64,000 bases of DNA from Pseudomonadota bacterium (GTDB lineage Bacteria; Campylobacterota; Campylobacteria; Campylobacterales; Sulfurimonadaceae), in the NCBI GenBank assembly GCA_043797085.1, contig JAZDQA010000004.1:64001-128000 (forward strand), in the 5' to 3' direction. Position 1 is the stretch's first letter; every line of letters begins with the position of its first letter. Positions 1,055 through 50,094 of this stretch are shown here, piece after piece. The position numbers and the translations under genes are program-made. The notes below the pieces were generated by a model. The model was not told where the DNA came from and ran no database searches. It saw nothing but the letters and a program-made list of their open reading frames with translations.

Positions 1055-1064
1055 AGTCATATCC

Positions 1065-4125: not shown

Positions 4126-4145
4126 CTAAAAGCCTTATATAATAA

Positions 4146-4196
4146 TTTATCACATTAAACAAGAATTTTATCACATTAAGTAGGTATTTTATCATA
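4146..4196 (-). promoter_or_regulatory. Three direct repeats at 21-bp period, each resembling an extended -10 element
   Basis: tttatcacattaa at 4146 and 4167, tttatcata at 4188; reverse complement reads TGATAAA(A/T)T. Confidence 0.5.
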
Positions 4197-4296
4197 TATT
4201 TATATTTTACCGTCTAAAAAGATCCTTTAACCCACGCATAACATCAAATAGTTTATAATTCTTTTTTACATTCAAACGCATACATTTAGGTTACTC

Positions 4297-5121: not shown

Positions 5122-5131
5122 GAAGTATTTC

Positions 5132-7639: not shown

Positions 7640-7653
7640 GTTATTTCCCTAAA

Positions 7654-8754
7654 TTAAACGTTAAATCTAAAATGCATTATATCACCATCAGCAACGATAT
7701 ATTCTTTTCCTTCTAAACGCATTTTTCCTGCTTCTTTGGATTTATTCTCTCCGCCGCATGCCACATAGTCTTCATACGCGATGACTTCAGCGCGAATAAA
7801 TCCTTTTTCAAAATCATTATGGATAACAGCTGCGGCTTTTGGTGCGGTAGAATTTTTATGAATGGTCCATGAACGCACTTCTTTGACCCCAGCGGTAAAG
7901 TAGCTCATATAACCTAGTTTATCAAAACCTTTACGGATTATTTGCTCTAATCCTGATTCTTCTACACCCATTTCTCGTAAAAATTCGTCACGTTCATCAT
8001 CTTCAAGACCAATAAGCTCTTCTTCGATTTTTGCACACAATTTGATAACTTCACATCCTGTTTTGGTAGCATGCGCTTTAAGTGCAAGGACAAAAGCATT
8101 ATCTTCAGCAAGTCCGTCTTCATCAACGTTTGCACCGTACATGATCTCTTTTGCACTTAAAAGACGCACTTCGCGGTTAAGCTGCTCAAACATCTCGGTA
8201 TCGGCTTTTGGAAAATTACGAGCAAGATTTCCATCACCTAGAAACTCCAGAAGCTCTTCGGCAAAAACAAGTAATGCAGCGGCATCTTTTTCATTTTTAG
8301 CTTGTTTTTTGAGACGTTCGATACGGTTGCTAAGAACTTCAAGATCGGCGAAAATAAGCTCATTTTCGATAATCTCAACATCTTGAAGAGGATCAATACG
8401 CCCTTCAGTATGGACAATGTTTTCATCCTCAAAACAACGGACGATTTGTAAAATAACTTCGGTTTCACGGATATTGGAGAGAAATTTATTTCCTAATCCC
8501 TCACCTTTGCTCGCACCCTTTACAAGACCTGCGATGTCAACAAAATCAAGAGTCGAATATTGAACACGCTCAGGTTTGACGATTTTCACCAATGCATCGA
8601 TACGGCTATCAGGAACCGGCACGGTTGCTTTGTTTGGTTCGATAGTACAAAATGGATAGTTAGCAGCTTCTGCGTTTTGTGCTTTGGTGAGCGCGTTAAA
8701 AGTAGTTGATTTTCCGACGTTTGGTAGTCCTACGAGTCCGATTGATAATCCCAT
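7654..8754 (-). CDS. ychF: Redox-regulated ATPase YchF
   Basis: GLPNVGKST, NYPFCTIEPN, DIAGLV and C-terminal TGS domain ending HFRFNV; start at MGLSIG overlapping the pepA stop (TAATG). Confidence 0.97.
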   Translation of the reverse strand: MGLSIGLVGLPNVGKSTTFNALTKAQNAEAANYPFCTIEPNKATVPVPDSRIDALVKIVKPERVQYSTLDFVDIAGLVKGASKGEGLGNKFLSNIRETEVILQIVRCFEDENIVHTEGRIDPLQDVEIIENELIFADLEVLSNRIERLKKQAKNEKDAAALLVFAEELLEFLGDGNLARNFPKADTEMFEQLNREVRLLSAKEIMYGANVDEDGLAEDNAFVLALKAHATKTGCEVIKLCAKIEEELIGLEDDERDEFLREMGVEESGLEQIIRKGFDKLGYMSYFTAGVKEVRSWTIHKNSTAPKAAAVIHNDFEKGFIRAEVIAYEDYVACGGENKSKEAGKMRLEGKEYIVADGDIMHFRFNV

Positions 8755-10181
8755 TATTCTAATCCTTGTTGTAATTTTAGTAGCCATTCAAGTGTCATAC
8801 GTACGCCTGCACCTGTACCACCGTAAGTATGAACATCCCATGCGCTTTCGGTATAGGCGGAGCCTGCGATATCGAAATGTACCCATTTGTCTTTCATGTT
8901 ATCATCGATGAAGTTATCGAGGAACAATGCCGCCGTGATCGCTCCGCCGTAAGGTTTAGACGAGACGTTGCAGACATCGGCAAGGTCGCTTTTGATCAGT
9001 TTTTTGAGGTGGCGGTTAAAGGGTAATATACCGCAGTATTCGCCGCTCGCTTCTGCTGCATTCATCCACTCTTGTTTGAGTGCTTCGTTATGTCCCATAA
9101 CTCCGGTGGTGTACGGTCCAAGAGCAACCATACACGCACCTGTCAGTGTCGCATAGTCGAAGATATAATCAGCTTTGACATTGGCTTGGGCATATCCCAG
9201 TACATCGGCGAGAACTAAACGACCTTCGGCATCAGTGTTGCGTACTTCGATGGTTTTACCATTTTTGGCACGGAGGACATCATCAGGTTTGTAAGCATTG
9301 CCGCCGATCATGTTCTCAACGGCTCCGATCAATGCGTGTACTTCGATATCGAGCTTGAGCTCGCTCACCGCTTTGATAATCCCCATGACGGCACATCCGC
9401 CTGCTTTGTCCATTTTCATCGTTACCATCGAGGCAGCGGCTTTGAGACTGAGCCCGCCGCTGTCGTAGGTGAGCCCTTTGCCCACGAGGGTGATGATCTT
9501 TTTGGGGTTTGCAGGTTTGTAAGCGAGGTGAATCAGACGGGGAGGGTTAATCGATGCACGACCAACTGCGAGCATCGCGTTCATCCCCTCACTCTCTAAA
9601 CCATTTACATCGAGAATTGTACATTCAAGGTTATTGGTTGAAGCGAGTGTATCGGCAGTAACTGCCATCGCCTGAGGAGTCATGTCGTATGGAGTTAGAT
9701 TGACCAAATCACGGACGAAATTGGTTGCTTTGGCAATGGTGACGCTTTGGTTGAACATTGACTCTAACACACCAAAATCAGCACCGGAATCATTAGCAAA
9801 CATAATCTCTTCCAGCGTAATTTTTTTAGGCTCTGATTTGTAGGATTCAAATTTATATCCCCCTAACAGTGCCCCTTCGACCAAAGCATTTAAGCTCTCT
9901 TTTGTAATAGCAACTTTGAGTGAGCTATAGGCATAGTTTATAGCTGATTTAAGTGCCGAAGCCATACTCAGACGGTAGGTTTCGCTGCTCTCTTCGGTTA
10001 TAGCACAGATGAGGAGACGATGTTCATGCAGAGTACATATCTGTTCTGCTTCGGCTTTAAATCCTGCCTGTGTCAAAAGAGCTTTGAGAGGGTGTGCTTC
10101 AAATTGTGCTGGTGTGACAAATTCTAATGTCAAATCTGCATTGAGTGAGGATAATGATTGATTATAAAGGGCGACGTTCAC
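8754..10181 (-). CDS. pepA: Leucyl aminopeptidase (M17)
   Basis: VGKGLTYDSGG, MKMDKAG, NTDAEGRL and HFDIAG motifs. Confidence 0.96.
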   Translation of the reverse strand: MNVALYNQSLSSLNADLTLEFVTPAQFEAHPLKALLTQAGFKAEAEQICTLHEHRLLICAITEESSETYRLSMASALKSAINYAYSSLKVAITKESLNALVEGALLGGYKFESYKSEPKKITLEEIMFANDSGADFGVLESMFNQSVTIAKATNFVRDLVNLTPYDMTPQAMAVTADTLASTNNLECTILDVNGLESEGMNAMLAVGRASINPPRLIHLAYKPANPKKIITLVGKGLTYDSGGLSLKAAASMVTMKMDKAGGCAVMGIIKAVSELKLDIEVHALIGAVENMIGGNAYKPDDVLRAKNGKTIEVRNTDAEGRLVLADVLGYAQANVKADYIFDYATLTGACMVALGPYTTGVMGHNEALKQEWMNAAEASGEYCGILPFNRHLKKLIKSDLADVCNVSSKPYGGAITAALFLDNFIDDNMKDKWVHFDIAGSAYTESAWDVHTYGGTGAGVRMTLEWLLKLQQGLE

Positions 10182-10755
10182 GGCGTTTCTCCAAAAGATT
10201 TTTTTCTATTCTATTAAACATAAAACTAATACTGCCAATAATGGCGATGACAAGCGGTATGGCAAAGTACCAGTGCGCCTTAATCCAAGCGAGGAGTTTG
10301 AGAAGCTCTTCTCCGAAATAATAAGCCGGTATGATGGTCAATGCTGCCCAAAAAATGGCGCTTACAAAGTTAATGATGGCAAAATCACGGGATGAATATT
10401 TAGTTAATCCTATTGCCATAGGTATTACTGTACGCATGCCATACATGTAGCGTTGAACAAAAATAAGCGGCCATCCGTATTTTTTGAGCAACAGATGAGC
10501 GATGGCAAATTTACGTCGTTGAGAACGAAGTTTATCATGGATGTATTTTTTATTAAACCGTCCAATATAAAAATATATCTGATCTCCGACAAACCCACCG
10601 AACGCTCCTACCATTAAAGCAATCGGAAGGAACATATCTCCTGTATGCGACATAATACCGGCCATTACAAGACCAAGTTCACCTTCTAAAATACTCCAAG
10701 CGAACAAGACAATATAACCGTATTCTTTTAACCATTCAATAAATAAGTGTTCCAA
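10162..10755 (-). CDS. DedA family membrane protein
   Basis: LEGE, GDQIYFYIGR and RYMYGMR DedA pattern. Confidence 0.88.
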   Translation of the reverse strand: MEHLFIEWLKEYGYIVLFAWSILEGELGLVMAGIMSHTGDMFLPIALMVGAFGGFVGDQIYFYIGRFNKKYIHDKLRSQRRKFAIAHLLLKKYGWPLIFVQRYMYGMRTVIPMAIGLTKYSSRDFAIINFVSAIFWAALTIIPAYYFGEELLKLLAWIKAHWYFAIPLVIAIIGSISFMFNRIEKNLLEKRRERRPL

Positions 10756-10764
10756 TTTAATCCC

Positions 10765-11967
10765 TTAATTATCGAAATTCAATAACTGTTTAGCCTGAAT
10801 CATATCTTTGTCGCCACGTCCTGATATATTGACAATGATAAGTTTATCTTTAATGTCGGGCATTTTTTTCAAATATGCGACAGCGTGAGCGGTTTCAAAA
10901 GCGGGGATAATTCCCTCTGCACGACTAAGCCATACGAAAGCGTCCAACGCTTCGGCGTCGGTAATGTTATCATAGCTAACGGTTCCATTATCTTTATGAA
11001 ACGCGTGTTCGGGTCCTATACCCGGATAATCCAGTCCTGCCGAGATCGAGTGGGCTTCGAGAATTTGACCATCTTCATCTTGGAGCAGATAGCTCATCTG
11101 ACCGTGCAATACTCCCGGACGACCTTTGAGCAATGAACATCCGTGTTTATCCGTATCGACTCCATGTCCACCCGCTTCGATTCCGATACAGCGAACACTA
11201 GAGTCTTCTAAAAAGTGTTGAAAGGTTCCAATCGCATTGCTTCCTCCGCCGATACACGCAATAACATAATCGGGAAGACGATTTTCTTTTTCTAAAATCT
11301 GCGCGCGTGCTTCGCAGCCGATGATGGCTTGAAAATCCCGCACCATCATAGGGTAGGGGTGAGGACCTGCAACGGTACCGATGATGTAAAATGTATCACG
11401 TGCGTGGGTTACCCAGTGACGAATAGCATCATTCATAGCATCTTTAAGGGTTTTAGATCCACTCTCTACGGCATGAACTTTTGCCCCCAATAGTTTCATC
11501 CGAAAGACATTGAGTTCTTGTCTGGCAACATCTTTAGCACCCATAAACACTTCACATTCCAGACCCAATAACGCGGCAATGGTAGCCGTTGCCACACCAT
11601 GCTGTCCCGCTCCTGTTTCGGCAATGACCTTTTTCTTTCCTAAACGTTTTGCCATAAGTCCCTGTGCGATGACATTATTGACTTTGTGCGCACCGGTATG
11701 ATTAAGATCCTCACGTTTGAGATAGATTTTAGCCCCCAATTCTTTAGAGAGATTCGCTGCATAATACAAGGGGCTTGGGCGACCGACATAATCGGTAAGA
11801 TAACCATCTACCTCTTTCCAAAAGGTTTCATCAAAACGAATTTCATTGTACGTTTGTTCAAGTTCCAAAAGAGCCGGCATAAGTGTTTCGGGGACATATC
11901 GTCCGCCAAAAATTCCAAAATGTCCATCAACGGGATCAAAAGGGGAGGGTTTAGGTATGTACATCAA
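10765..11967 (-). CDS. trpB: Tryptophan synthase beta chain
   Basis: [12 protein letters not shown] lysine, [29 protein letters not shown]. Confidence 0.97.
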
Positions 11968-12512
11968 TCTACTCCAATTACAGTATAAACAGGGGTTAAG
12001 TTTTTAAGTTTAGATTGCCCGTCAAGAAAATCAAGACCCATGATAAAACATCCTTCTACGCATACAGCACCCACTTTGTTGATGAGATTTGCAGCCGCAT
12101 ACGCTGTACCGCCCGTTGCAATCAAATCATCAATCAGTAAAACTTTAGGACTTTCAATGGGTGAAAATGCGTCGATATGGATTTCAACTTCATCAAAACC
12201 GTATTCCAATGAGTATTTCTCTGAAACAGTGGTGTACGGGAGTTTCCCTTTTTTTCGAATAGGGATAAACCCAACGCCCAGCATTTGAGCCAAAGCAGCT
12301 CCAAAAATAAAACCGCGAGCATCAATACCCGCAACATGGGTTAATTCATAACTGCTGTATCGTGTATAAAGATGTCTCATAAGGAGAGAGTAGGCTTCTT
12401 TATTTGACAAGAGAGTAGTAATATCTTTGAAAATAATCCCCGGTTTTGGAAAATCCGGAATATCACGAATAGCATTATTTAAAATAAATTTTTCTTCTGT
12501 CGTCAGTATCAC
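11964..12512 (-). CDS. apt: Adenine phosphoribosyltransferase
   Basis: [34 protein letters not shown]. Confidence 0.96.
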
Positions 12513-12527
12513 ATAATTCCTTTGGCA

Positions 12528-12860
12528 TTAAATAAGTGCATCAATGCGCCCTTCGAGTTCTCGTATTTTATTTTGGAGGCGGTCCGTATCGATACGGTGT
12601 TTTGAGTTGCGTTGCTTGAGCATTTTGACTTCATTGCGCAAATTGTTGAGCTCTTCACTCAAAATATCGACGTTACCAAGCGCACGTTGTAACTGAATTT
12701 GGTACTTTCGAATCAAAATCTCTGCTTCTTTGAGGGTCAGTTTCATCATTTCACTGCTGCGTTGTTCTTTAACGGTGATGCTTCGAAAATAAAACATCTT
12801 GACTAAGAATACAAGGGCTCCCAGTGTAACAATCGTAAGAAGTGACCACTCTAAAAACAT
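12528..12860 (-). CDS. Small single-TM coiled-coil hypothetical protein
   Basis: N-terminal hydrophobic helix then heptad-rich C-terminus; packed between rpiB and apt. Confidence 0.75.
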   Translation of the reverse strand: MFLEWSLLTIVTLGALVFLVKMFYFRSITVKEQRSSEMMKLTLKEAEILIRKYQIQLQRALGNVDILSEELNNLRNEVKMLKQRNSKHRIDTDRLQNKIRELEGRIDALI

Positions 12861-12863
12861 TGA

Positions 12864-13301
12864 TTATCCCTTAATCGCATCTATTTTGTCAATTCGACCA
12901 CAATGCCGACCACTCTCAAATTTTCCGGCAATCCATGCATCCAATATGGATTCAGCAACTCCAAGACCAACGATACGTTCACCAAAACATAGAACATTTG
13001 CATCATTATGACCACGAGCCACGGTTGCAGTATAAGCATCATGGCATAATGCCGCACGAATACCATGAAAACGATTAGCAGCCATAGACATACCAATACC
13101 TGAACCACAAATCAAAATCCCCTGAGCAGAACTGTCGGACAAAACGTTTTCACATACTTTTACCGCATAGTCAGGGTAATCAACTCTCTCTTTGTTAAAA
13201 GGTCCGAGGTCGATTACCTCATGTCCTTTGGAACGAAGATTTTCAACGGTAAAATCTTTCAGATCAATTCCTGCATGATCCGTTGCGACGTAAAATTTCA
13301 T
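12864..13301 (-). CDS. rpiB: Ribose-5-phosphate isomerase B
   Basis: DHAG, DYPD, CGSGIG, HNDANVL and GRH motifs; start moved to MKFYV. Confidence 0.95.
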   Translation of the reverse strand: MKFYVATDHAGIDLKDFTVENLRSKGHEVIDLGPFNKERVDYPDYAVKVCENVLSDSSAQGILICGSGIGMSMAANRFHGIRAALCHDAYTATVARGHNDANVLCFGERIVGLGVAESILDAWIAGKFESGRHCGRIDKIDAIKG

Positions 13302-13309
13302 TTTTTTCC

Positions 13310-13975
13310 TTAATTCAGTAATAGTTGTAATAATGTTTGTGTAGGCCATACCAAAAGAGGTATTTTTAACGGCGTCATTAAAATGATTATGATAACAATC
13401 ATTCCATAAGGTTCGGCTTTAGCAAAGAATTCTGCCACTTTGTAAATCTTAAATTTCAATGCAAGATAACTCACAAAACGAGATCCGTCAAACCCTGGAA
13501 TTGGCAAGAGATTTAATACAGCAAGGACCACATTGATTTGTACTAATGACCATGCAAGCAAGATGAAAAAACTATCTTTTATCTCTGGGGTGTACATCGT
13601 AGTCAAGATAACGGAAAAAAGAGTTGCTATAAAAAGATTATACGCAATTCCTGCCAAACTCACTTGGATAGCTGCATTGTAACCACCGTTACGAATGACG
13701 GTTTGCATATTGACAGGAACCGGTTTTGCCCATCCGAATAAAAAGCCGGCAGAACCAAATAGCAGTACCGGTAAATAGTATGTCATAATAGGAACCAATA
13801 CAGAACCCACAGGATCAATATGAACAAGTGGATTAATATTGAGACGTCCAGCATTTTTCGCTGTATGATCTCCATATTTATACGCAACCCAACCGTGCAT
13901 GATCTCATGACCAATAATAGCGATTAAAAGTGCTAAAATCGAAGCGATAATAGGCAAGAAATCAGTAGAGTTCAT
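13310..13975 (-). CDS. Site-2 protease family (M50) metalloprotease
   Basis: HEIMH, GWAKPVP and NLLPIPGFDG motifs. Confidence 0.92.
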   Translation of the reverse strand: MNSTDFLPIIASILALLIAIIGHEIMHGWVAYKYGDHTAKNAGRLNINPLVHIDPVGSVLVPIMTYYLPVLLFGSAGFLFGWAKPVPVNMQTVIRNGGYNAAIQVSLAGIAYNLFIATLFSVILTTMYTPEIKDSFFILLAWSLVQINVVLAVLNLLPIPGFDGSRFVSYLALKFKIYKVAEFFAKAEPYGMIVIIIILMTPLKIPLLVWPTQTLLQLLLN

Positions 13976-14780
13976 TATCGTTTGCGTCTTCAATGATTCG
14001 TTGATCTTGTGCTCGTTTTAAAATAGCACCTTGTTCTAAATCATGCGGTGTTTTACCGATACGATCCCATCGCACTTTATAATCATCGTCGATACTAAAA
14101 TAGACAAACCACGGCGTCCCCTCGATAAGCCCGTATGGGACTGCTCCCCAAAAACGGCTGTCATTGGAATGGTCACGGTTGTCTCCCATCATAAAGTATT
14201 CGCCATCAGGAACGACAATGGGCGCTGTGTTAAATATTTCTGCAGGATAGATACCGTTATCGATGATATGATCATCGTGATGAATTCCCTCATGCTCTAG
14301 GGTATAAGGATCTTTTACCCAGAGTTTTCCGTCTACATCTACCAATTCATAGTTAGCAAACATTTTTCGTGTGTATTCATTACCTTCATGCGGATGCAGA
14401 TAAAGAACTTTATCCACTAAAAACAGCTCATCGCCCGGCAACCCGACACATCGCTTGACGTAATGCATTTTCGTATCATTCGGATAGCGAAAAATAACAA
14501 TGTCACCACGCTGTGGAGTGTCACCATCTAAAATATGTCCATCCGTTCCGGGAATAAGGGGGATTTCGAGAAAAGGGATGTGAGGCGTAGAAATCCCATA
14601 GGCAAACTTTTTCGCAAACAGATGATCGCCGATTAGGAGTGAGTCTTTCATGGAGCCGCTAGGAATTTTAAATGCCTGCGCAATAAAAAAGATGATAAAC
14701 AGTACGATAATAATCGTCCCTGTCCATGAATTGGAAAACTTATAGGCACTGCGTAGGCCATTCATTGCTTTTGTCTTCAT
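13962..14780 (-). CDS. lepB: Signal peptidase I
   Basis: IPSGSM, YVKRCVGLPGD and GDNRDHSNDSRFWG boxes. Confidence 0.96.
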   Translation of the reverse strand: MKTKAMNGLRSAYKFSNSWTGTIIIVLFIIFFIAQAFKIPSGSMKDSLLIGDHLFAKKFAYGISTPHIPFLEIPLIPGTDGHILDGDTPQRGDIVIFRYPNDTKMHYVKRCVGLPGDELFLVDKVLYLHPHEGNEYTRKMFANYELVDVDGKLWVKDPYTLEHEGIHHDDHIIDNGIYPAEIFNTAPIVVPDGEYFMMGDNRDHSNDSRFWGAVPYGLIEGTPWFVYFSIDDDYKVRWDRIGKTPHDLEQGAILKRAQDQRIIEDANDNELY

Positions 14781-15635
14781 TTAAACTTCTTCTCCATGGT
14801 TTTTTGCTGCTTTTAGAGTATTTGAGAGGAGCATCGCGATAGTCATCGGTCCAACTCCGCCCGGCACTGGCGTGATATACGATGTTTTTGGGGCAACCGC
14901 GTCGAAATCAACATCTCCCACCAAGCGACCATCTTCTGCTCGGTTAATTCCGATGTCAACCACTACACATCCTTCGCTTACCATATCTTCACGTATAAGA
15001 TTGATTACACCGGCACCCACAAAAAGCATATCTGCTCTAAGAGTATGTGAGCGTAAATCTTTGGTATGGATATGGGTAATTGTCACGGTTGCATTGGCAT
15101 TAAGAAGTAGTGCCGCCATGGGTTTACCGACAATATTGGACGCACCGACGATTACGGCATTTTTCCCTTTAGGATCTATGTTGTATTCACTCAAAAGCTC
15201 CATGACTCCTAATGGTGTACAGGGGACAAAACCATCTAATCCTGTTGCCAAACGCCCTACATTAAAAGGGTGAAAACCGTCAACATCTTTAGATGGGGTA
15301 ACGACTTCAAGAATCTTGGTGGTATCAATATGGGCAGGTAGGGGAAGCTGGATTAAAATACCATCAATGTTTGGGTTTTGGTTCATCATTTCAATGGTTT
15401 TAATGATAGCTTCTTGGGAAATATCATCCGGCATTTCATGCGTAACGGAGTAAAATCCTGCACGATCACACGCTTTTTTCTTCATCCCTACATACGCTTG
15501 ACTTGCGGGATCATGACCGACGAGAATAACCGCTAAGCCCGGAACGCGTCCTGTTGTTTTTTTGAACTCTTTGGCTTCGAATGAAACCTTTTCTTCGATT
15601 TTTTTGGCGAGGGTTTTACCGTCAAGTAGTTGCAT
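14781..15635 (-). CDS. folD: Bifunctional methylenetetrahydrofolate dehydrogenase/cyclohydrolase
   Basis: QLPLP, KDVDGFHP, PCTP and TPVPGGVGPMT motifs. Confidence 0.97.
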   Translation of the reverse strand: MQLLDGKTLAKKIEEKVSFEAKEFKKTTGRVPGLAVILVGHDPASQAYVGMKKKACDRAGFYSVTHEMPDDISQEAIIKTIEMMNQNPNIDGILIQLPLPAHIDTTKILEVVTPSKDVDGFHPFNVGRLATGLDGFVPCTPLGVMELLSEYNIDPKGKNAVIVGASNIVGKPMAALLLNANATVTITHIHTKDLRSHTLRADMLFVGAGVINLIREDMVSEGCVVVDIGINRAEDGRLVGDVDFDAVAPKTSYITPVPGGVGPMTIAMLLSNTLKAAKNHGEEV

Positions 15636-15704
15636 TTAATCACCGTAAATATAGTTTTTGGGTATGATACCGATAAATAACTAACAGTTGGTTAAAGGGG
15701 TGGT

Positions 15705-16067
15705 GTGAAAGTATTATTGGTGTTATTCATAGCCTTTCAAGTGTACGGTGCAACCTCATTTATCACCAAAGAAGAGTATGCGGCAGGTCTTTATCACAAT
15801 CCAAGAGGCATTGGCTGTCAAATGTGCCACGGTGAATCAGGTGAAGGTCGAAAAATTGCTTCTTATAAAGAAAAAGGTGAAGTAAAAGTATTTCAAGGAA
15901 ACCCGATTAACCGCATCTCATTTCCGGAATTTTACCGTCGTGTAAACAGTAAGATTGTGGGTATGCCTCGTTATTATCTCACCGATACTGAAATCCAAAT
16001 CCTCTATTATTATCTTCATCGCAAAGAATTTCGCCGTGCCGCTTCAAAACCCACTCCATCTAAATAA
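15705..16067 (+). CDS. Periplasmic monoheme c-type cytochrome
   Basis: Signal peptide, CQMCH heme motif, distal MP axial Met. Confidence 0.85.
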   Translation: MKVLLVLFIAFQVYGATSFITKEEYAAGLYHNPRGIGCQMCHGESGEGRKIASYKEKGEVKVFQGNPINRISFPEFYRRVNSKIVGMPRYYLTDTEIQILYYYLHRKEFRRAASKPTPSK

Positions 16068-16968
16068 TCTCTTAGAAAATAGAGACTTAGAATCGTTAAA
16101 AAAGTTAGCTGTTCCGGTATACCGAAATCAAAATCAAACACTCACTTTTCGAAGCGCCATGATGGTTTCGACGCATAATCTAAAACATTTGCTTAAAATT
16201 CCCAACTTAACGGCTGAGTGTTTGATGATAAACCTCGAAGATGGGGTGAGCCCTGAATTAAAACCGTATGCATTGGTTTTATGCGCCTTGGCACTCGCTT
16301 CGAATCCTATAAGCGACAAAAAAATGGTCGTTAGAGTCAATCCATTGGATGAGGGGGGAGTAGAGGAGATTGTGTATCTCAATGCTTTTATGCCCGATGC
16401 CATACGAATCCCAAAAATTAGAAGTATTGAAGATGTCAAACGCGCTTTGGAACTTATCGATGAGGGGATTGAAATCCATCTCTCCATCGAGACAAAAGAG
16501 GCATGGCTGCATTTGAGGGAATTGGCGATTAGTCCGCGTATCAAAGCGTATTATCTCGGAGTCCTTGATCTTTTCGCAGACTTAGGGCTTTCTCAAAATT
16601 TATTTTCCCCTGAAAATCCAACAGCACAGTATCTTCTTTCCCATTTTTTAATTACCTCTCGTGCTTGCGGTGTCAAACCCGTCTCATTCGTCTATCAAGA
16701 GTATAAAAACAGTGACGGCTTGCGCCATTGGCTCGAATTGGAACAAAGAATGGGATTTGACGCTAAAGGGTGTATTTCTCCAGCTCAAGTGGAACTGATA
16801 CATGAATTTTTTGGTTGCAGTGAAGCGGAGTTTAAACGTGCCCAAGAGATCATTCGACTTTTCCAAGAGCATGCTGCTTTAGGGATAACTGGATTTGTTG
16901 ATGATAGATACGGGTTTATCGATGAGCCGATTTATAAAGGTGCTTTGGCGGTGATTAATAGCCGGTAA
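16036..16968 (+). CDS. HpcH/HpaI aldolase/citrate lyase (CitE-like) family protein; start uncertain
   Basis: NLEDGV, VRVN, IPKI, IET, KGCISPAQ and FIDEP pattern of CitE/malyl-CoA lyase fold; in-frame GTG at 16036 chosen to reduce overlap with the cytochrome. Confidence 0.8.
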   Translation: MPLQNPLHLNNLLENRDLESLKKLAVPVYRNQNQTLTFRSAMMVSTHNLKHLLKIPNLTAECLMINLEDGVSPELKPYALVLCALALASNPISDKKMVVRVNPLDEGGVEEIVYLNAFMPDAIRIPKIRSIEDVKRALELIDEGIEIHLSIETKEAWLHLRELAISPRIKAYYLGVLDLFADLGLSQNLFSPENPTAQYLLSHFLITSRACGVKPVSFVYQEYKNSDGLRHWLELEQRMGFDAKGCISPAQVELIHEFFGCSEAEFKRAQEIIRLFQEHAALGITGFVDDRYGFIDEPIYKGALAVINSR

Positions 16969-17806
16969 GATTGTACCAGACTCGATAACGAATATAGGTT
17001 TTTTGTGCGGGTCTTGGATATTGTGCATACGCCAGTTCAATCGTCTCTTTTGTCGTATCATCCAAGATTGCAAAACGGCTGTTTTTTAGATAACGAATAT
17101 CAGAAATACTACCGTCGGGATGAAGATAAAACTCGATAGTATTGGTCTCATCAACGCGAAGATTATCAGGAATACGTGAACGTCCGTATCGATCCAAAAC
17201 TCCTTGGGTAATACGTCGCATCACCTCTTGATTATCCAATATATATTTTTGCTCCCCTTCAGAAAGTTCACCAAATTTGTCTCCATAAAGTTTTTTGACA
17301 CTATCATTAATTTTGATGCTCGATTTTGAGGAAGATTTAACTTCAGGATCAGCTTGCGAGAGAATATCGTAGAGCCCTTTCTCTTTTTTGGGCTGGGGTT
17401 TGTGCTCTATAGTGGCTACTTCTTTGGCAACATGACGCTCGAATGCTTTTTTCGGTTCAACGGGAACTGTTGGCTGTATCGGTGGTGTGGATTGTACGGT
17501 TGGTGCAGTTTGCTTGGGAACCTGTTTTGGTTGTTGAGGAGTGGGAGTTTTAAGCTGTTCCCCTTTGGGCATGGGACGAGCTTTAGTCATTTTAGGGATT
17601 TCATTTTTTACCAATGCTTCTTTAGCTGCTTTAGGCTTCTCTTTTAGAGAGAGTTTAAATCGCGATTCACTTACCTTTTCTTCTTTTGGGGGAGGTGGAG
17701 GAACAGGGGTGATTTTCTCTATAAATGCAAGCAAGAGTATAACAATGATGTGTACCAGTACAGCGATTAGTAAAGCATAAAGAGAAAAAGAGGGACGCTG
17801 CTGCAA
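16955..17806 (-). CDS. TonB/TolA-like energy transducer
   Basis: N-terminal TM with H (AVLVHII), Pro/Lys-rich linker, TonB_C-like end (DGSISD...LDD); TTG start near 17806 inferred. Confidence 0.8.
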   Translation of the reverse strand: MQQRPSFSLYALLIAVLVHIIVILLLAFIEKITPVPPPPPKEEKVSESRFKLSLKEKPKAAKEALVKNEIPKMTKARPMPKGEQLKTPTPQQPKQVPKQTAPTVQSTPPIQPTVPVEPKKAFERHVAKEVATIEHKPQPKKEKGLYDILSQADPEVKSSSKSSIKINDSVKKLYGDKFGELSEGEQKYILDNQEVMRRITQGVLDRYGRSRIPDNLRVDETNTIEFYLHPDGSISDIRYLKNSRFAILDDTTKETIELAYAQYPRPAQKTYIRYRVWYNLTGY

Positions 17807-17973
17807 TGAAAGTTCCAAATATGGTGTAATTGTGGGAATTATAGCCAAATCATTGTAAATGACCTTATATCGGGTTAATGGACGTATGGTTATAATATGA
17901 ATACCTAAGCTAATGTTATGCACATTGAGTGATTTTTTTGAGAATTCAACTTTAAAAAGTCGTATTTTTCTTT

Positions 17974-18047
17974 CGTCATTCCCGCGAAGGCGGGAATCCA
18001 GCTTTGTTTTACGGGGATGGATCCCCGGGTCAAGCCCGAGGATGACG
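17974..18047 (+). repeat. Bipartite palindromic REP/RPE-like element, copy 1
   Basis: GTCATTCCCGCGAAGGCGGGAATCCA...TGGATCCCCGGGTCAAGCCCGAGGATGAC; second copy inverted at 36476-36561. Confidence 0.85.
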
Positions 18048-18098
18048 GGAAATAAATTTACTGCTTAAGGTCAGTTACAAAAATAAGGATAAATATTT

Positions 18099-19382
18099 AT
18101 GACAATTAATCATTCGCAAGAAGCATTTGCAAAAGCTCAAGAACTCATTCCGGGTGGTGTCAATTCGCCCGTTCGTGCATTTAAAAGTGTTGGAGGAATT
18201 CCTCGCTTTATTGCTAGCGGAGAGGGTGCATATCTCATTGATATTGATGACAATCGTTACATAGATTACGTTCAAAGTTGGGGTCCGTTGATTTTTGGAC
18301 ACCGTGATGAGAGTATCGAAAATGCTGTTATTGAAGCGGTAAAACATGGTCTCAGTTTCGGTGCACCGACGGAAGCAGAATCTGAACTCGCAGAACTTAT
18401 CATCTCTATCTATGGCTCGATTGAAAAAGTCCGTTTTGTCAGCAGCGGAACGGAGGCCGTTATGAGTGCTATTCGTTTGGCTCGCGGTTTTACCCTTCGT
18501 GATGATATTGTTAAATTTACGGGATGCTACCACGGTCACAGTGACGCATTGCTTGTCCAAGCGGGTTCAGGTGCAGCAACTTTTGGCACACCAAGTTCCC
18601 CAGGAGTACCGGCTGATTTTACCAAACACACACTTTTAGCAGAATACAACAATATAGAAAGCGTGCGCAAATGTTTTCAGGAGAGTGAGGGAATCGCATG
18701 TGTTATCATCGAACCCATCGCCGGAAATATGGGACTTGTTCCTGCCGATAAAGATTTCCTTGCGCAGCTGCGAGCATTGTGTGATGAATACGGTGCATTG
18801 TTGATTTTTGATGAAGTGATGAGCGGATTTCGTGCGTGCTTGCATGGTGCAGAGAGTATCACAGGAACCAAGCCTGATTTGGTAACACTGGGTAAAGTCA
18901 TCGGCGGAGGAATGCCTGTGGGTGCTTTTGGCGGACGTCGCGACATTATGGGACATCTCTCACCTGAGGGTGGCGTGTATCAAGCTGGCACGCTTAGCGG
19001 TAATCCAGTAGCCATGGCAGCAGGATTGGCATCGATTCGCAAGATCAAACAAAATGCTCGTTTATACGGAATCCTTGAAACGAGAGCAAAGCGTCTAATG
19101 CAAGGGTTTAATGATGCAGCGCTTAAAAACAATATCGGATTACAAACCGATGTTCGCGGTTCAATGTTTGGGTTTTTCTTTTCGAATGAGCCTGTCCATA
19201 ATTTTGCCGATGCATTGAAAAGTGATACATCACGATTTGCCCGTTTTCATGCAGGCATGCTCGATGCTGGATTTTATTTTGCGTGTTCACAGTTTGAAAC
19301 TGGGTTTATTTGTACGGCGATTACCGATACGATGATTGAAGAGACGATTGCTGCGGCAGAGTCGATATTTGGAGAATTATAA
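18099..19382 (+). CDS. hemL: Glutamate-1-semialdehyde 2,1-aminomutase
   Basis: [45 protein letters not shown]. Confidence 0.97.
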
Positions 19383-43706: not shown

Positions 43707-44506
43707 AATCCTCCTTCGTCATTGAGTGAATCAAGCGCACTTTTTTCGCTTATCTTGGTTTTAGTGACCTCTATTGAGGCTCCTTCTAACCGTTTTTCGT
43801 CCGTTTTATCCCACCCTTTTATATAGTGGTCTCCCACTTTCCCCATGGCTAATGCTCTGGGGAAGATATGGATAGCGGCGATTTCAGTAACACATGCGTG
43901 CTCACACATCCCGCATCCTGTACACACTTCCGCATGCACAACAGGTTTTAAAAATGCATGCTTCCCCGTGCGTTCATTTTTGGACGTTTCGATGGTAATG
44001 GCTTCGCCTAAAAGCGGACACGCACGGTAGCACGCATCACACTGGATTCCCCACACGGCGATACACGAACTCTCATCGACCACCGCTAAACCCATACGCG
44101 ATTTATTGATGTCCAAAACGGCTTTGCTTTTCACATAGCTGCTTACGGAGGGTTCGTTCAATGCACCGCTAGGGCACACCGGTACACACGGAATATCCGT
44201 ACACATATAACAAGGTACAGATCGTGGGGTAAAAAACGGTGTCCCGATGGGGAGATTGTCCCCTGGACGCGCTAATATCAGAGTGTCATACGGACACGCT
44301 TCCACACACAAACCGCACTTGATACAGTTTTTGATAAACTCCGCTTCATCCAGCGCTCCCGGAGGGCGCAAAACCAGAGGCGCTGCTTTTACTTCACCCA
44401 CATAGGCACTCCAGACCAAAGCCCCCATCGCACTCAACCCAATTCCTCTCGCAATAGAGAGGAGAAAACGGCGACGATCATTAGGAGTTTTAGTACTCAT
44501 GGTCAT
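43703..44506 (-). CDS. napG: Quinol dehydrogenase periplasmic ferredoxin subunit
   Basis: Tat RRRFL, LRPPGA, four Fe-S motifs. Confidence 0.95.
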   Translation of the reverse strand: MTMSTKTPNDRRRFLLSIARGIGLSAMGALVWSAYVGEVKAAPLVLRPPGALDEAEFIKNCIKCGLCVEACPYDTLILARPGDNLPIGTPFFTPRSVPCYMCTDIPCVPVCPSGALNEPSVSSYVKSKAVLDINKSRMGLAVVDESSCIAVWGIQCDACYRACPLLGEAITIETSKNERTGKHAFLKPVVHAEVCTGCGMCEHACVTEIAAIHIFPRALAMGKVGDHYIKGWDKTDEKRLEGASIEVTKTKISEKSALDSLNDEGGL

Positions 44507-47295
44507 TACGCTTTATAGATTTTGACGGCACATTTTTTGTGGTCGATTTGTTTAGAAATCGGACACGTGTGATCCAAACATACTTTGTTGATAAATACTT
44601 TTTCATCAAACCATGGTACGAATACCAATCCTTTTGGAGGACGGTTACGACCACGAGTTTCGACGTGTGCTTTTACTTTACCACGGCGTGATTCTACCCA
44701 CACCATCTCGCCACGCTTCACTCCGCGCTTTTGTGCATCATCAGGGTGCATATAACACAATGCCTCCGGAACCGCACGATAAAGCTCAGGAACACGCATC
44801 GTCATGGTACCGCTGTGCCAATGCTCGAGTACACGACCGGTACAAAGCCAAATGTCATAGTTTTTATCAGGTACTTCGGTTGGTTCCATATACGGACGGA
44901 AAAAGATTTTGGCTTTGTTATCCAAATTCACTTTTGCACTGTTCGTAACCCCTTTAAGATTTCCGGTTGGAATGTCTTTGAACGCATGGCCGTAGAATGC
45001 GAATGCACCGTTGTTTGCTTTTTTCGCATACGGATCGTATTTCGCGTTGTAACGCCAGAACGTCTCTTTCCCATCGACAACCGGCCATTTTAGACCGCGT
45101 ACACGGTGATAGGTATCGAAATCGGCGTAGTCATGTCCATGCCCGTCACCAAATTTACGATACTCTTCCCAAAGATATTTTTGGATGAAGAAGCCATATC
45201 CTTTGAACGGTTTTCCATCGCTTCCGATAACATTACGTTTATCGCCTTCAACTTCAGAGTTTTGATAGCCTTTGCCCACTGGATCAGGCCATTTAAATGC
45301 TTTTGCCCGTGCATTGCCAAAAAGGACATCGTACAAGGTTGAGTTATCGTTGTATCCCATTGCTTTGGCTTTGCCCATAACGTCAGGTAATCCGCCATCC
45401 AGTCCTGGAATTTTTTGCGCTCCCCATACTTCTTTGATCGTAAAGCGTTTGGAAAGCTCTACAAACTGCCATGTATCGGACATCGAATCACCCATTGGAG
45501 TGACTTGCTGACGCCAGTGTTGTGTTCGGCGTTCTGCATTACCGTACGCTCCCCATTTCTCATACATCATCGCACTTGGTAAAATCAAATCGGATACTTT
45601 TGCTGAAATTCCCGGATAACCATCGGACGTTACGATAAAGTTGTCCATGTTTCGAGCTGCTTTAATCCAGTGATCTGCATTACCGGTATCTTGATACGGA
45701 TTACAAACACTGACCCATGCAAATTTCACCTTGCCATCTTCGAGATCACGGTGGATCTGAGTAAAGTGCGATCCTGCTTTTGGGTTAATCGTTCCATCAG
45801 GAATCGCCCAGATGCCTTCTGCCATTTTACGGTGAGCAGGGTTCATGACGACCATGTCCGCAGGAAGTCGGTGACTGAATGTTCCTACTTCACGAGCTGT
45901 TCCACACGCGGATGGTTGACCTGTGAGCGAGAATGCACCATTACCCGGTTTGGCTTGTTTACCCAGTAGGAAATGCACCATGTAAGCTTGTTCATTAACC
46001 CATGTTCCACGTGTATGCTGATTAAAGCCCATCGTCCAGAATGTCAAACATTTGCGTTTTTTCTCGATGTAAAGATCTGCCATTTTTTTAAGTTTTGCTT
46101 TGTAGCTTTCCATGCTCTCATCTGCATCACCTTTGGAAACGTGTGCAACATAATCGAGGGTATAGGGAGCAAGACCTTTTTTGAACTCTTCAAAGGTGAT
46201 TTTCCAATGTTTGTTCGCATCATTGGTATTTTTCATCTCCAGCGTATCGCCCTCTTTGTAGCCTAAATATCCAAGACTGACTCCCTCATCGGCAGTTAGA
46301 ACTTTAGATTTTTGTTTGGCTGCGGTATCGAGCTCTTTCGCCCCATATTTAGGGTGGTGAATGTCTTCGCGAAGCCCGTATCCGATGTCTACAGGACCGG
46401 TTGCAAATACGATATTTTTATCTAAGAACTCTTTGTCCATGGCTTCAGGATGATTGTACACAATCTCACGAGCGATGTAGTTCCAAATCGCCAAATCGGT
46501 ATTAGGCTTGAAGATGATTTCGACATCCGCTAGGTCCATCGTACGATGTTTGTAGGTCGATAGAACAACAACTTGTACTTTATCAGGATTACTAAGTTTA
46601 CGATCACTGACACGTGACCAGAGGATAGGGTGCATTTCCGCCATATTTGAACCAAACGCAACAATCGTTTCAGCAAGTTCAATGTCCTCATAACAGCCCG
46701 ATGGTTCATCCGCTCCAAAAACGTTCATGAATCCAGTAACAGCAGATGCCATACAAAGACGTGCATTAGGATCGATGTTGTTGGTACGGAATCCCGCTTT
46801 CATTAGCTTGAGTGCTGCGTGACCCTCCATCGCCGTTTGCTGACCTGAGCTGAACATCGCGATGCCGGTAGGTCCTTTTTCTTTGAGAGCTGATTTGATG
46901 TGTATTTCCATCTCATCAAAAGCACGTTTCCAGCTGACAGGTTTGAATTTGCCCTGCTTATCAAATTGGCCTTTATCGTTCATGCGCAATAACGGCTGAG
47001 TAAGACGATCCGCACCGTACATGATTTTGGCGTTAAAGTATCCTTTGATACAGTTAAGACCGCGATTAACCGGAGCCAATGGATCACCCTTGACTGCGAC
47101 GATACGATCGTCTTTGGTTGCCATCATGATACCGCATCCCGTTCCGCAAAAACGGCATGCCGCTTTATCCCAACGCCATCCTGCCTGACCCTGAGCTGAT
47201 GCTGCTTCGACTGAAGCAGGTACTGCCATTCCTATTGCTGTTGCGGCAGACGCTGCTGCTGCACTTTTTAAAAATTCTCTTCTATCCAATGACAT
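44506..47295 (-). CDS. napA: Periplasmic nitrate reductase catalytic subunit
   Basis: Tat [42 protein letters not shown]; start moved to MSLDRR. Confidence 0.98.
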
Positions 47296-47416
47296 AAAAG
47301 CCCCCTTAGTGGAATCACTTGTTCGTTCCAAAATGGACGAACTCCTTAAGTTTTCCTGATGCTATGAAATAACTCATGCACTTCAAACATTATAAAGAAA
47401 TAGGAGAAAAAAGGTT

Positions 47417-47430
47417 TTGACTTAGGTCAA
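47417..47430 (-). promoter_or_regulatory. Crp/Fnr-type box upstream of napA
   Basis: TTGAC-TTAG-GTCAA, 22 nt from TATAAT (47394-47389, minus strand). Confidence 0.85.
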
Positions 47431-47448
47431 GAAACGAAAAAATGCCGA

Positions 47449-48345
47449 TTAGGCATTTCGTATTTCGTTGGCTTTTTGGAGGTTGTTTTTAAGTTTTTTA
47501 AGACGCAGAGAGGTTTGGTGCAGTTCTTCGCTTACTTGGATCATTACATCTTCACTTTGTTCTAGCAGTTCTTCGGCTTCGGGGGTGGAACTCATGAGAC
47601 TGGCAGTTGCAGCTTCACTCTTCTCGACCGCATCCGTAGCACTTTGGAGCGCTTCTTCGACATTACGTAAAAAATACTCGATATGAGAGCAGGCAATATC
47701 GAGTTCGTTTCCACTATGGGTGAGATTTTCTTCACCGCTAATACTTTTTGAATGTTCTAGGAATTTTTCAAAATTGCGTTGTATCTGTAATGTTGTCCGC
47801 GCCATGTAGAGGATAATAGCAAAAGAGATGAGGGCAAGAGTAATTTGAATACGGTGCGCCAGTACTCGTTTTTCCATCATCGATTCTTCGTATTGGTTCA
47901 CTGCTTTGTCCATCAATGCCAGCGTTTGATCTCCATTCTCATAAATGGTTTTAAGATCATACAAGTTGTGATCCCCTTGTAAATAACGATCGATCAGTCC
48001 TCCCATGCGATTCCAATGTCTATGCACTTCCATCATGGTAATATCGATTTTTTCATTTTTAAAAGCATGATAGTCTGAAGTCGTTGCACTAAGCTGTTTA
48101 AAATTACGATCAAATTCTTCTCGTGCACTTTGCAGCCGCTCGTATGCTCCATCTTCATCCACCAACAGACGGTGTAGTTCCAAGACGGTACGCTGGGAGA
48201 GCATTCGCTGTTTTCCGGCTGTATTGATTACTTTGGCATCGAGTTTTTGAGATGAATTGAGCCAAATATCGACCATAATAATAGTAATAAGATTGATTGA
48301 GAGAATGAGAACGATCCAACGAATTTTAGTAGATATTGATTGCAT
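47449..48345 (-). CDS. Two-TM membrane sensor with NarX/PilJ-type periplasmic domain and short cytoplasmic coiled coil
   Basis: DAKVINTAGKQRMLSQR resembles the NarX/NarQ nitrate-binding P box; no kinase or MCP signalling motifs. Confidence 0.8.
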   Translation of the reverse strand: MQSISTKIRWIVLILSINLITIIMVDIWLNSSQKLDAKVINTAGKQRMLSQRTVLELHRLLVDEDGAYERLQSAREEFDRNFKQLSATTSDYHAFKNEKIDITMMEVHRHWNRMGGLIDRYLQGDHNLYDLKTIYENGDQTLALMDKAVNQYEESMMEKRVLAHRIQITLALISFAIILYMARTTLQIQRNFEKFLEHSKSISGEENLTHSGNELDIACSHIEYFLRNVEEALQSATDAVEKSEAATASLMSSTPEAEELLEQSEDVMIQVSEELHQTSLRLKKLKNNLQKANEIRNA

Positions 48346-48992
48346 TATAGCCCCTCCGTAAAATAGTGTGCTAACTCATCTCGTAAAAGAATGAGTGTTT
48401 TGTGATCTTCTTCGATGATAATGCCCTTACGGATAAATTTAGCCAATACACGCGAAAGGGTAGCTGGCTGAATATTAAGACGATAGGATATTTCTTGTTT
48501 TTTCAGACTGTTATAAAGATCAAGATTTCCGTGCAGCATTTTAGCAACTTTTGCAGTGACATCGTGCACCATTCCCATCGTTACCATACAATCGATCATT
48601 TGTTTTTGATTCGCGAGAAGATTCACCAATCGAATCAGTAACGTATTGTCATTTTTTACAACCTCATTAAAAGCTTTTAAATCACACGACATCACGCGGC
48701 TGTGGGAGAGAAACTCAACATTGCTAAAACAACTGATACGATCACAATCAAGTGAACCGATATTGGTCAGTAATGCTTGATCCTTTAAGGTATACAAAAA
48801 AACTTCGTTATCAAATCGATCCACTTTATAAAACTTCACTTCTCCCTCAAGGAGAAAATAAACACGATTAATATCATCATCTTCATACACTAAGATATCC
48901 GATGCTTCATAATTTTTTATTTTTGTATTAATGGATAATGGGGATAGTTTTTGCGGATCACATCCTTTAAAAAAATCAAGCTGTTCCAACAT
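48345..48992 (-). CDS. Crp/Fnr family transcriptional regulator (Dnr/Nss-like, no FNR N-terminal Cys cluster)
   Basis: YFLLEGEVKFYK cNMP-fold strand, C-terminal HTH KQEISYRLNIQPATLSRVL; start moved to MLEQLDFF (AAGGA RBS). Confidence 0.9.
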   Translation of the reverse strand: MLEQLDFFKGCDPQKLSPLSINTKIKNYEASDILVYEDDDINRVYFLLEGEVKFYKVDRFDNEVFLYTLKDQALLTNIGSLDCDRISCFSNVEFLSHSRVMSCDLKAFNEVVKNDNTLLIRLVNLLANQKQMIDCMVTMGMVHDVTAKVAKMLHGNLDLYNSLKKQEISYRLNIQPATLSRVLAKFIRKGIIIEEDHKTLILLRDELAHYFTEGL

Positions 48993-49055
48993 CAATGGAG
49001 TATTCCTTACGTAATAATCTATTTTAAATGATAACACACACCTCTATCATTCGAA

Positions 49056-49069
49056 TTGACATAAATCAA
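49056..49069. promoter_or_regulatory. Bidirectional Crp/Fnr-type box between the regulator and moaA
   Basis: TTGAC-ATAA-ATCAA; 22 nt from TACCAT (49092-97, plus) and 22 nt from TGT-TATCAT (hexamer 49033-28, minus). Confidence 0.8.
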
Positions 49070-49128
49070 GAACATCCATTTGAAGATAAGCTACCATAAG
49101 CCAAGTATAAATGAAGAAGGCTGACCCA

Positions 49129-50094
49129 ATGTTGATAGACAGTTTTAATCGTGAAGTCAATTATTTACGTGTATCCGTCACCGAGCGATGCAATTTCAGG
49201 TGTCGTTACTGCATGGCAGAAAAGCCCTTTAGCTGGGTGCCAAAAGAAAATCTTCTTAGTTACGAAGAGCTTTTTGCTTTTATCAAAATCAGTATTGACA
49301 GTGGTATTCGTAAAATCCGTATTACAGGCGGAGAGCCAACCACGAGAGAAAATCTCGATGAGTTGATTGCTATGATACACACCTATGCACCCGAAGTCGA
49401 TATCGGGCTTACTAGCAATGGTTTTTTACTTCCCGCAATGGCCCAAAGGCTCAAAAGGGCAGGGTTAAAACGGGTCAATATTTCACTTGACTCACTGGAA
49501 AAAGAGACATTGCATTATATCGCCCAAAAAGATGTTCTTGAATCCGTATTAAAAGGGATAGATGCCGCAATCGATGCCGGATTATCCGTCAAAATCAACA
49601 GCGTTATTTTGCGCGGAATCAATGATCACGAAATAGGGTCTTTGTTCGAATATGCCCAAAATATCGGTGCGCAAATACGTTACATCGAATACATGGAAAA
49701 CATTCATGCCTCCGATGGGATAAAAGGTCTTGCAAGCTATGAAATACTCTCAGAACTCTCTAAAACTCATTCATTCTCTCGTATCGTAAACGAAAAAAGC
49801 GGTCCCGCAAATTTGTATGAAACGTCCAAGGGATACCATTTCGGTACGATTGAACCCCATCGTCACGATTTTTGTGCAACCTGCGACCGTCTTCGTTTGA
49901 GTGCTGAGGGTGATTTGATCGGGTGTTTGTATTTCGAGGGGGCAAAAAACATCAAAGAAGCAATCCGTAACGGTGATACTCAAGAGGCTTATAAAATGTT
50001 AGCCGAAGTGGTCGATAACAAGCCCGAAAAAAATCTCTGGGGAATCGAAAACGTGGAAATTTCCTCGCGTGCGTTTTATCGAACGGGAGGATGA
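49129..50094 (+). CDS. moaA: GTP 3',8-cyclase (molybdenum cofactor biosynthesis)
   Basis: YLRVSVTERCNFRCRYC, TGGEP, FCATCDRLRL, C-terminal GG. Confidence 0.96.
   Translation: MLIDSFNREVNYLRVSVTERCNFRCRYCMAEKPFSWVPKENLLSYEELFAFIKISIDSGIRKIRITGGEPTTRENLDELIAMIHTYAPEVDIGLTSNGFLLPAMAQRLKRAGLKRVNISLDSLEKETLHYIAQKDVLESVLKGIDAAIDAGLSVKINSVILRGINDHEIGSLFEYAQNIGAQIRYIEYMENIHASDGIKGLASYEILSELSKTHSFSRIVNEKSGPANLYETSKGYHFGTIEPHRHDFCATCDRLRLSAEGDLIGCLYFEGAKNIKEAIRNGDTQEAYKMLAEVVDNKPEKNLWGIENVEISSRAFYRTGG

Follow-up and report, generated by a model that had tools for sequence, protein, structure and literature searches.

How could a periplasmic signal reach a DNA-binding protein through a membrane sensor that has no enzymatic output? 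The question is raised by two overlapping genes upstream of napA in a 64,000-nucleotide stretch of DNA (the window; GCA_043797085.1, contig JAZDQA010000004.1, positions 64,001 to 128,000) from a bacterium of the Sulfurimonadaceae (Campylobacterota), one encoding a Crp/Fnr-family regulator (Crp hereafter) and the other a receptor with two transmembrane segments (TM). In Wolinella succinogenes, the regulators NssA, NssB and NssC mediate the nitrate, NO and N2O responses, NssA being reported to upregulate nap with nitrate, and the accessible text of the two sources states that the way of sensing is open (PMC6682613, PMC8139620). In this work, we find that the two genes of the window are a conserved sensor-regulator pair of Campylobacterota without enzymatic output. 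We favor, with a probability of about 0.58, a reading in which the receptor, as long as no ligand is bound, grips the activator at its DNA-binding face and nitrate, by moving the TM and HAMP segments, releases it, whereupon nap, moaA and the pair itself would be activated. Such a mechanism could account for the induction of nitrate respiration in these bacteria.

The two genes and their conservation across Campylobacterota

The Crp/Fnr frame (48345-49037) and the sensor open reading frame (ORF; 47449-48345, 298 aa) both lie on the minus strand, and the stop of the former overlaps the start of the latter by one base at TAATG (48343-48347), exactly as stated in a preliminary description of this DNA. 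The features of the pair are the following:

48345..48995, minus strand: Crp/Fnr-family regulator of the DNR/NssA type, 215-216 aa, likely start TTG 48995 or ATG 48992, frame open from GTG 49037 (Pfam, PDB relative, promoter geometry)
48438..48473, minus strand: recognition-helix region of the regulator, residues 175-186 (IQPATLSRVLAK), where the sensor tail is predicted to make contact (complex model; aligns to CRP CSRETVGR)
47449..48345, minus strand: kinase-less two-TM receptor, 298 aa, comprising TM1, PilJ four-helix sensor, TM2, degenerate HAMP and truncated chemoreceptor arm (ORF, Pfam, hydropathy, models, profiles)
48259..48315, minus strand: TM1, residues 11-29 (hydropathy)
48193..48228, minus strand: N-box or P-box INTAGKQRMLSQ, residues 40-51, with G44-x-x-R47 (exact match to the McpN N-box pattern)
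47809..47865, minus strand: TM2, residues 161-179 (hydropathy)
47650..47799, minus strand: degenerate HAMP-like segment, residues about 183-232 (alignment to NarQ 5iji; profile match to the HAMP of chemoreceptors)
47527..47553, minus strand: acidic tail motif E265-D266-x-x-I269-x-x-x-E273, predicted Crp-binding helix (conservation and modelled interface)

The sensor family was present in 63 of 301 genomes sampled from all over the phylum (67 rows, hand-picked as frames other than methyl-accepting chemotaxis proteins, MCPs). With the Crp clade cut at a profile-score gap between 183 and 170 bits, a sensor tail was found within 1.3 kb downstream of 65 of the 66 above-gap Crps, and such a Crp upstream of 65 of the 67 tails; the synteny of the pair, initially put forward as a check, is therefore conserved. 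The training alignment of the profile contained 27 of the 66 Crps, and outside it 38/39 were paired; these counts, as well as those for napA given below, are descriptive and do not constitute tests, kin not being independent. Furthermore, in a quick tree, the Crps paired with a sensor fall into a single clade (SH-aLRT 100; 93 rows, including the orphan Crp of genome G011 and one long branch), separate from 23 Crps without a sensor. The N-box and the tail motif are kept at overall identities of about 25-30%, and the correlation between Crp and tail identities (Spearman 0.79, 86 pairs) is expected of linked genes anyway and was not counted as support. The closest relatives with named records are metagenome-assembled genomes of Sulfuricurvum, with 73-94% identity.

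The linkage to nap is looser than that between crp and sensor. All nap and nos counts rest on motif classes of the N-box, GxxR or QK, and the 77 distinct GxxR pairs, some of them at short-flanked loci, stand before napA (43), nosZ (2), other genes (29) or at an edge (3); since these 29 have neither napA nor nosZ within 1.3 kb, the pair travels as a unit. For its part, napA was found in 62/63 sensor genomes, versus 250/301 overall. A divergent sub-branch of the pair is found at L166-L170, L026 and L028, and at L026, L166 and L167 the pair is preceded by a protein of ~175 aa that is PAS-like by our reading.

Between its two TM segments, the sensor carries a PilJ domain (PF13675, residues 28-125, 59.3 bits versus a cut-off of 26.6), and INTAGKQRMLSQ fits the published N-box [IVL][ND]xAGxQRML[ST]Q with its G-x-x-R, which agrees with the proposal that the periplasmic region begins like the NarX/NarQ P-box. 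According to the accessible text of the respective papers, the Arg of the McpN N-box is required for nitrate binding (PMC6381276), and the nitrate site of NarQ is a G-x-x-R, where an Arg-to-Lys change abolishes sensing (PMC8199190). An AlphaFold model of the sensor (mean pLDDT 80.6, pTM 0.61) superposes on the ligand-binding domain of McpN (McpN-LBD; Z 15.7, rmsd 2.1, 117 aligned) and, with residues 1-232, on the sensor-TM-HAMP part of NarQ (5iji; Z 14.9, rmsd 4.3, 208 aligned), scores that unrelated four-helix bundles equally reach against this model; a Foldseek search with either sensor model gave no match at E<=0.001. The host genome is 95.9% complete, and the sensor is the only PilJ/N-box protein found there. 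A different kind of protein, with only two or four PilJ domains (~280 or ~560 aa) and at most one hydrophobic segment (P0104, P0112, P0152 and similar), may represent periplasmic nitrate-binding proteins.

The cytoplasmic tail had been described as a coiled coil without His-kinase, MCP or GGDEF motif. No kinase, MCP-signal, GGDEF or HAMP family passes on the sensor in Pfam or NCBIfam (nor HisKA_3, HATPase or PF00015), which upholds the absence of such outputs, but the tail is not featureless, being a degenerate HAMP followed by a truncated chemoreceptor arm. By profile comparison, it corresponds over 131 columns to the HAMP and the first arm of chemoreceptors from Campylobacterota (hhalign 97.9%, E 3.3e-13; five MCPs picked for their prior match to the tail profile) and over the HAMP only to ten PilJ-MCPs (85.9%), and the homology stops ~30 residues short of the signalling tip. 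Among 344 proteins examined, 241 matched the tail with at least 45 bits, many of them close relatives, and 241/241 end no more than 18 residues past the match, with the MCP tip in 0/241; full-length MCPs or kinases, whose presence among the homologues would have spoken for a mere truncation of this copy, do not occur among these strong matches. The sensor thus descends from a chemoreceptor by an old, fixed truncation, and since both the signalling tip and the return arm are missing, it cannot be a CheA-coupled receptor. A recent truncation or frameshift was also considered and rejected, as the proteins encoded at 20/20 named and 30/30 genome loci are whole (286-459 aa), with the Crp upstream.

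The same tail is found on one-PilJ (~300-345 aa, 49/77) and two-PilJ forms (~430-460 aa, 28/77), and its motif is highly conserved (E265 120/120, D266 113/120, I269 120/120, E or D at 273 119/120). Among the best 120 of 729 matches (266-2000 aa), none had the tail fused to a Crp or to an enzyme. Searched against PDB sequences, the tail returned generic coiled coils only (best E 0.0024) and no solved relative, and an atlas comparison (best score 0.89) pointed to HAMP/chemotaxis clusters, as a lead only. Four two-PilJ sensors (L096:4958-6343, L200:2720-4090, L202:2713-4089 and L203:142-1620) have a degenerated first N-box and retain both the Crp pairing and the tail; the genome of the first of them (G153) has no napA match.

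The regulator and its putative target promoters

The regulator contains a cNMP_binding (PF00027) and an HTH_Crp_2 domain (PF13545), both above cut-off, which places it in the Crp/Fnr superfamily, and its best PDB relative is DNR (3dkw). Since the predicted -10 element (49028-49033) falls inside the GTG-started frame, the real start is probably one of the two downstream codons listed above. FNR proper, which senses O2 through an Fe-S center, has an N-terminal Cys cluster and a central Cys. The regulator of the window had been said to lack these Fe-S cysteines, and its five Cys residues (12, 84, 89, 104 and 136) are indeed not in the FNR arrangement, none of them being invariant in the family. 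At position 178, Ala replaces the base-reading Glu in the window's Crp, as in 61/125 paired Crps versus 0/26 unpaired ones; this fits the docking of an acidic helix, but may also loosen DNA specificity. In its position immediately before nap and in its TTGA-N6-TCAA target boxes, the regulator is similar to the NssA type, which has been studied genetically. The neighboring features are the following:

44506..47331, minus strand: napA, first gene of the nap cluster and putative target (NF010055 / TIGR01706 above cut-off)
47389..47430, minus strand: napA promoter, with box TTGACTTAGGTCAA (47417-47430) and TATAAT (47394-47389) at class II (-41.5) spacing (pattern scan and geometry)
47439..47459, minus strand: terminator-like hairpin at the sensor stop (consensus scan only)
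49028..49097, both directions: bidirectional promoter, with box TTGACATAAATCAA (49056-49069), TATCAT 49033-49028 toward crp and TACCAT 49092-49097 toward moaA, both at class II spacing (pattern scan and geometry)
49111..50094, plus strand: moaA (molybdenum cofactor synthesis), putative divergent target (TIGR02666 above cut-off)

With napA mapped downstream of the sensor gene and moaA divergent at 49111, the location of the pair just upstream of napA is as first described. The window contains 8 copies of the pattern TTGAY-N4-RTCAA versus 0.70 expected, a count reached by 0/100 shuffles, and those at 47417 and 49056 support the previous observation that the crp promoter carries the same box as napA. 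The latter copy lies in the divergent intergenic stretch common to crp and moaA, with a class II -10 both ways, and 6/8 window boxes, napA's with its TATAAT among them, are followed by a -10 hexamer (at least 5/6) at the distance that puts the box center at -41.5. Crp/Fnr factors that act as class II activators bind at this spacing, and the boxes of nap, moaA and the crp-sensor pair have this geometry. A sigma-70 consensus scan of its own was at chance level (6 found versus 5.5 expected). At related loci, an exact TTGA-N6-TCAA was found within 200 nt behind the sensor in 35/75 pairs of the GxxR type and 40/44 of the QK type, versus 1/77 and 0/47, respectively, inside the sensor gene, and 72/76 of the boxes behind sensors have a downstream -10 at class II spacing.

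The hairpin at the sensor stop suggests a two-gene crp-sensor transcript. Parts of the sensor gene are covered by contigs from two RNA libraries (X4 and X6) with possible DNA content, no piece of which spans both genes. The other window boxes lie at 35786, 38937, 40499, 50934, 52783 and 59907, four of them with class II -10 spacing, and they lie before or near the genes for a ribonucleotide reductase activase-like protein, an anaerobic ribonucleotide reductase, a 447-aa protein without Pfam match which, by our reading, resembles an outer-membrane porin, an OmpR-type regulator, a nitrite/sulfite reductase and NorE.

Predicted contact, proposed mechanism and competing explanations

The preliminary description had suggested that the sensor may control the Crp by direct contact, and a modelled complex favors this possibility. 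Two Crp chains and two tails, modelled with our own 31-row alignments, scored 0.62, versus 0.24 for the best control and 0.00 when an unrelated protein was swapped in for Crp, and so passed a mark reached by 116/157 solved complexes and 2/215 mismatched pairs; the runs had at least 91% of contacts in common, with a partner pLDDT of at least 51. In all three runs, the tail was placed on the recognition helix and the start of helix D of the Crp. The predicted contacts involve tail residues 263-284, centered on E265, D266, I269, Q270 and E273 (positions that had already been found invariant), and Crp residues 60-61, 145-148, 175-186 and 211, aligned to D138-V139-T140 and C178-R185 of CRP, which bind DNA. 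The model suggests, in consequence, that the tail grips the DNA-binding face of the Crp/Fnr activator, and as no solved relative of the tail was found, it is less likely that the prediction reproduces a similar complex already solved.

In the mechanism that we favor, the contact and its site come from this model, and we infer the ligand, the release and the sign of control. A dimeric membrane receptor would bind periplasmic nitrate between its two Arg47 residues, as NarQ and McpN do, judging from motif and fold. When nitrate is absent, the cytoplasmic hairpin would offer two acidic helices (E265, D266, I269 and E273) to the DNA-binding face of the Crp dimer, the start of helix D and the recognition helix being occupied, and the activator would be kept at the membrane and off the DNA. 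Nitrate binding would then shift the TM segments and the HAMP and alter the packing of the hairpin, and the freed Crp would reach the class II promoters of nap, moaA and its own operon at their TTGA-N6-TCAA boxes. If true, a periplasmic signal would be relayed to a Crp factor without phosphorylation or second messenger.

Several observations weigh against this mechanism. The host genome has a second possible nitrate sensor, a NIT-domain (nitrate/nitrite) segment in a 1126-aa frame (G000:C1:134553-135254), and two further Crp-family genes, three in total, that could read the same boxes. The sensor family is absent from 188 of the 250 napA genomes, and the exceptions to the pairing, besides one contig edge, are G011, where a clade Crp stands directly before napA (L119:7117-7812) and no sensor was found in the genome, and G102, where the Crp is split into two ORFs beside an intact sensor (L098:6411-7072), through decay or sequencing error. 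E265, I269 and E273 are also present in related MCPs, D266 alone being new, so that the conservation of the tail motif is partly inherited; likewise, Q176 also occurs in the DNR of Pseudomonas aeruginosa and is thus a clade marker and not proof of contact. Regarding the complex, the counts given for the score mark hold only roughly here because our own alignments and four chains differ from the calibration, and one unrelated control partner made 61 confident contacts at its score of 0.24, which indicates that this Crp surface attracts helices. Inter-protein covariation (127 pairs, effective number 91) gave no signal, with gappy ends on top and the 25 predicted contacts ranking from 204 to 18567 of 24840, in a test that is weak because the interface columns hardly vary.

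The nitrate-bound sensor might instead bind the Crp and activate it allosterically, the modelled site being wrong or that of the resting state only. The pairing, and the joint duplication of both genes described below, fit this equally well, and a clade-specific hairpin of the effector domain (K57-x-D-R/K-F/H-x-N-E), whose residues 60-61 belong to the modelled interface, is a possible docking site; however, the placement of the tail on the DNA-binding surface in all three runs is hard to square with activation, and in G011 a Crp has been kept before napA although no sensor was found, which fits a default-active factor. We consider allosteric activation improbable.

It also seems unlikely that the sensor is a tip-less chemoreceptor derivative acting on the chemotaxis system, through methylation of its Glu residues by CheR/CheB or through mixed dimers with MCPs, or else on an unlinked kinase, and that it lies beside the Crp merely for co-regulation. 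Its tail is homologous to the HAMP and arm of MCPs, as described above, with conserved Glu residues common to them, and in family f4 not even MCP-like matches to the tail were seen (0/12); moreover, CheR was found in 10/10 sensor genomes tested, so the methylation route stands. Nevertheless, the CheA/CheW tip is lacking in all strong tail matches, co-regulation alone would not be expected to link the sensor one-to-one to a single Crp clade and to have the two duplicated together, and the modelled complex passes, in contrast to that with an unrelated protein in place of the Crp. Finally, that the Crp itself senses NO or another nitrogen oxide, like DNR/NssR, with the membrane protein as an accessory or a slowly decaying relic, is a quite remote option. 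In its favor, the closest solved relative is DNR, C89 (59/77) and C136 (55/77) are common in the GxxR class, and there are lineages in which the Crp is an orphan (G011) or the N-box is worn (L096, L200, L202 and L203). On the other side, the N-box and tail motif outlast the low overall identity, the Cys residues are not invariant, most paired Crps lack the H68 (23/26) and P-Y/F-P (26/26) seen in the NssB/NssR-like clade without sensors, and reviews assign nitrate responsiveness to NssA and NO responsiveness to NssB.

Relation to known systems and sister pairs before nosZ

NarX and NarQ of Escherichia coli (5iji, 3ezi) are also two-TM four-helix sensors with a G-x-x-R P-box followed by a HAMP; in contrast to them, the window sensor has no S-helix, GAF, DHp or CA, no phospho-His and no NarL/NarP partner, its output being a hairpin of ~65 residues and its partner a Crp. 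McpN of P. aeruginosa (PA2788; 6gcv) shares the PilJ domain, the exact N-box and the chemoreceptor-type HAMP and arm, whereas the window sensor is devoid of signalling tip and return arm, and is tied to transcription and not to taxis. NssA of W. succinogenes (Nss/DNR branch) is likewise a Crp/Fnr factor upstream of nap with the consensus TTGA-N6-TCAA, but the published descriptions, in their accessible parts, name no sensor for it and leave the sensing route open. A Crp encoded upstream of nap in N. labii has 44.8% identity to NssA, and the proteomics of this organism includes a 443-aa PilJ-domain protein with 21 unique peptides, according to the available portions of the paper and its supplement (PMC11539149); the length of this protein fits the two-PilJ form, a likeness by length only. 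Two further sources mention the regulators, with no sensor noted in their accessible text (PMC7476070, PMC12285233).

Non-phosphorelay nitrate sensing already has a precedent in NasS-NasT of Paracoccus denitrificans, where, according to the accessible text of the source, the regulator is released from a sensor-regulator complex in a nitrate-dependent manner (PMC3795266). The regulator there, NasT, binds RNA, whereas that of the window is a DNA-binding activator whose sensor spans the membrane. NasT belongs to the ANTAR antiterminators, and NasS is soluble and resembles NrtA. Mlc-PtsG, anti-sigma factors and the CarS antirepressor act by retaining a transcription factor or by covering the helix with which it recognizes DNA, and we know of no sequestration or DNA-mimic regulator with a ligand-binding chemoreceptor remnant or a Crp/Fnr target. 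A putative sensor gene beside nssA is reportedly mentioned by Kern and Simon in 2016. Our literature search, outside of which lay most subscription papers, including Kern and Simon 2016, found no description of this sensor or of a Crp so controlled. The sensor domain, the regulator family and the logic of release are known, and it is their combination and the predicted interface that are undescribed. The pair offers a named receptor, a candidate ligand residue (R47) and a predicted interface of E265/D266/I269/E273 with the recognition helix, and, if the favored reading is right, could serve as a compact two-gene nitrate biosensor.

The tail-profile search revealed a second sensor class in the window's family, designated QK, with Lys at the Arg position (46/46) and mostly Asn at the Gly position (40/46). 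Of the 49 QK pairs, 41 immediately precede a Sec-dependent nosZ, 2 stand before other genes and 6 are found at contig edges. In the trees of the Crps and of the tails alike, they group as a single clade (support 100) within the GxxR pairs, which indicates that crp and sensor were duplicated together. In light of the Arg-to-Lys data on NarQ, the QK class should not sense nitrate. Neither nosZ nor a QK pair was found in the window's genome. It is a tentative idea that these proteins represent a distinct class of transmembrane signalling, in which a chemoreceptor without its kinase-control tip has turned into a ligand-gated DNA mimic for Crp/Fnr factors, and that the nosZ-linked copy, with N-x-Q-K for G-x-Q-R, senses a different cue of N2O respiration, possibly N2O itself. 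The mechanism of N2O sensing is still being sought. The sister pair provides a concrete candidate for the control of N2O reduction by bacteria of vents, sediments and groundwater.

The QK pair loci (L081-L089, L121-L162, L171-L174 and L177-L178) lie upstream of clade II nosZ, and the pair is usually preceded by a conserved gene of ~140-160 aa without Pfam match above cut-off. In other lineages, a response regulator and a PAS/HATPase kinase are found before nosZ (L105:6160-7794, L106:1334-3025, L108:5148-6782, L109:2246-3883 and L117:2193-3803). The periplasmic start of these kinases resembles a worn N-box (S-x-Q-G or Q-K for G-x-Q-R), with a PilJ homology that Pfam does not confirm, and they would provide another, independent example of an N-box-like sensor before nosZ that has no Arg.

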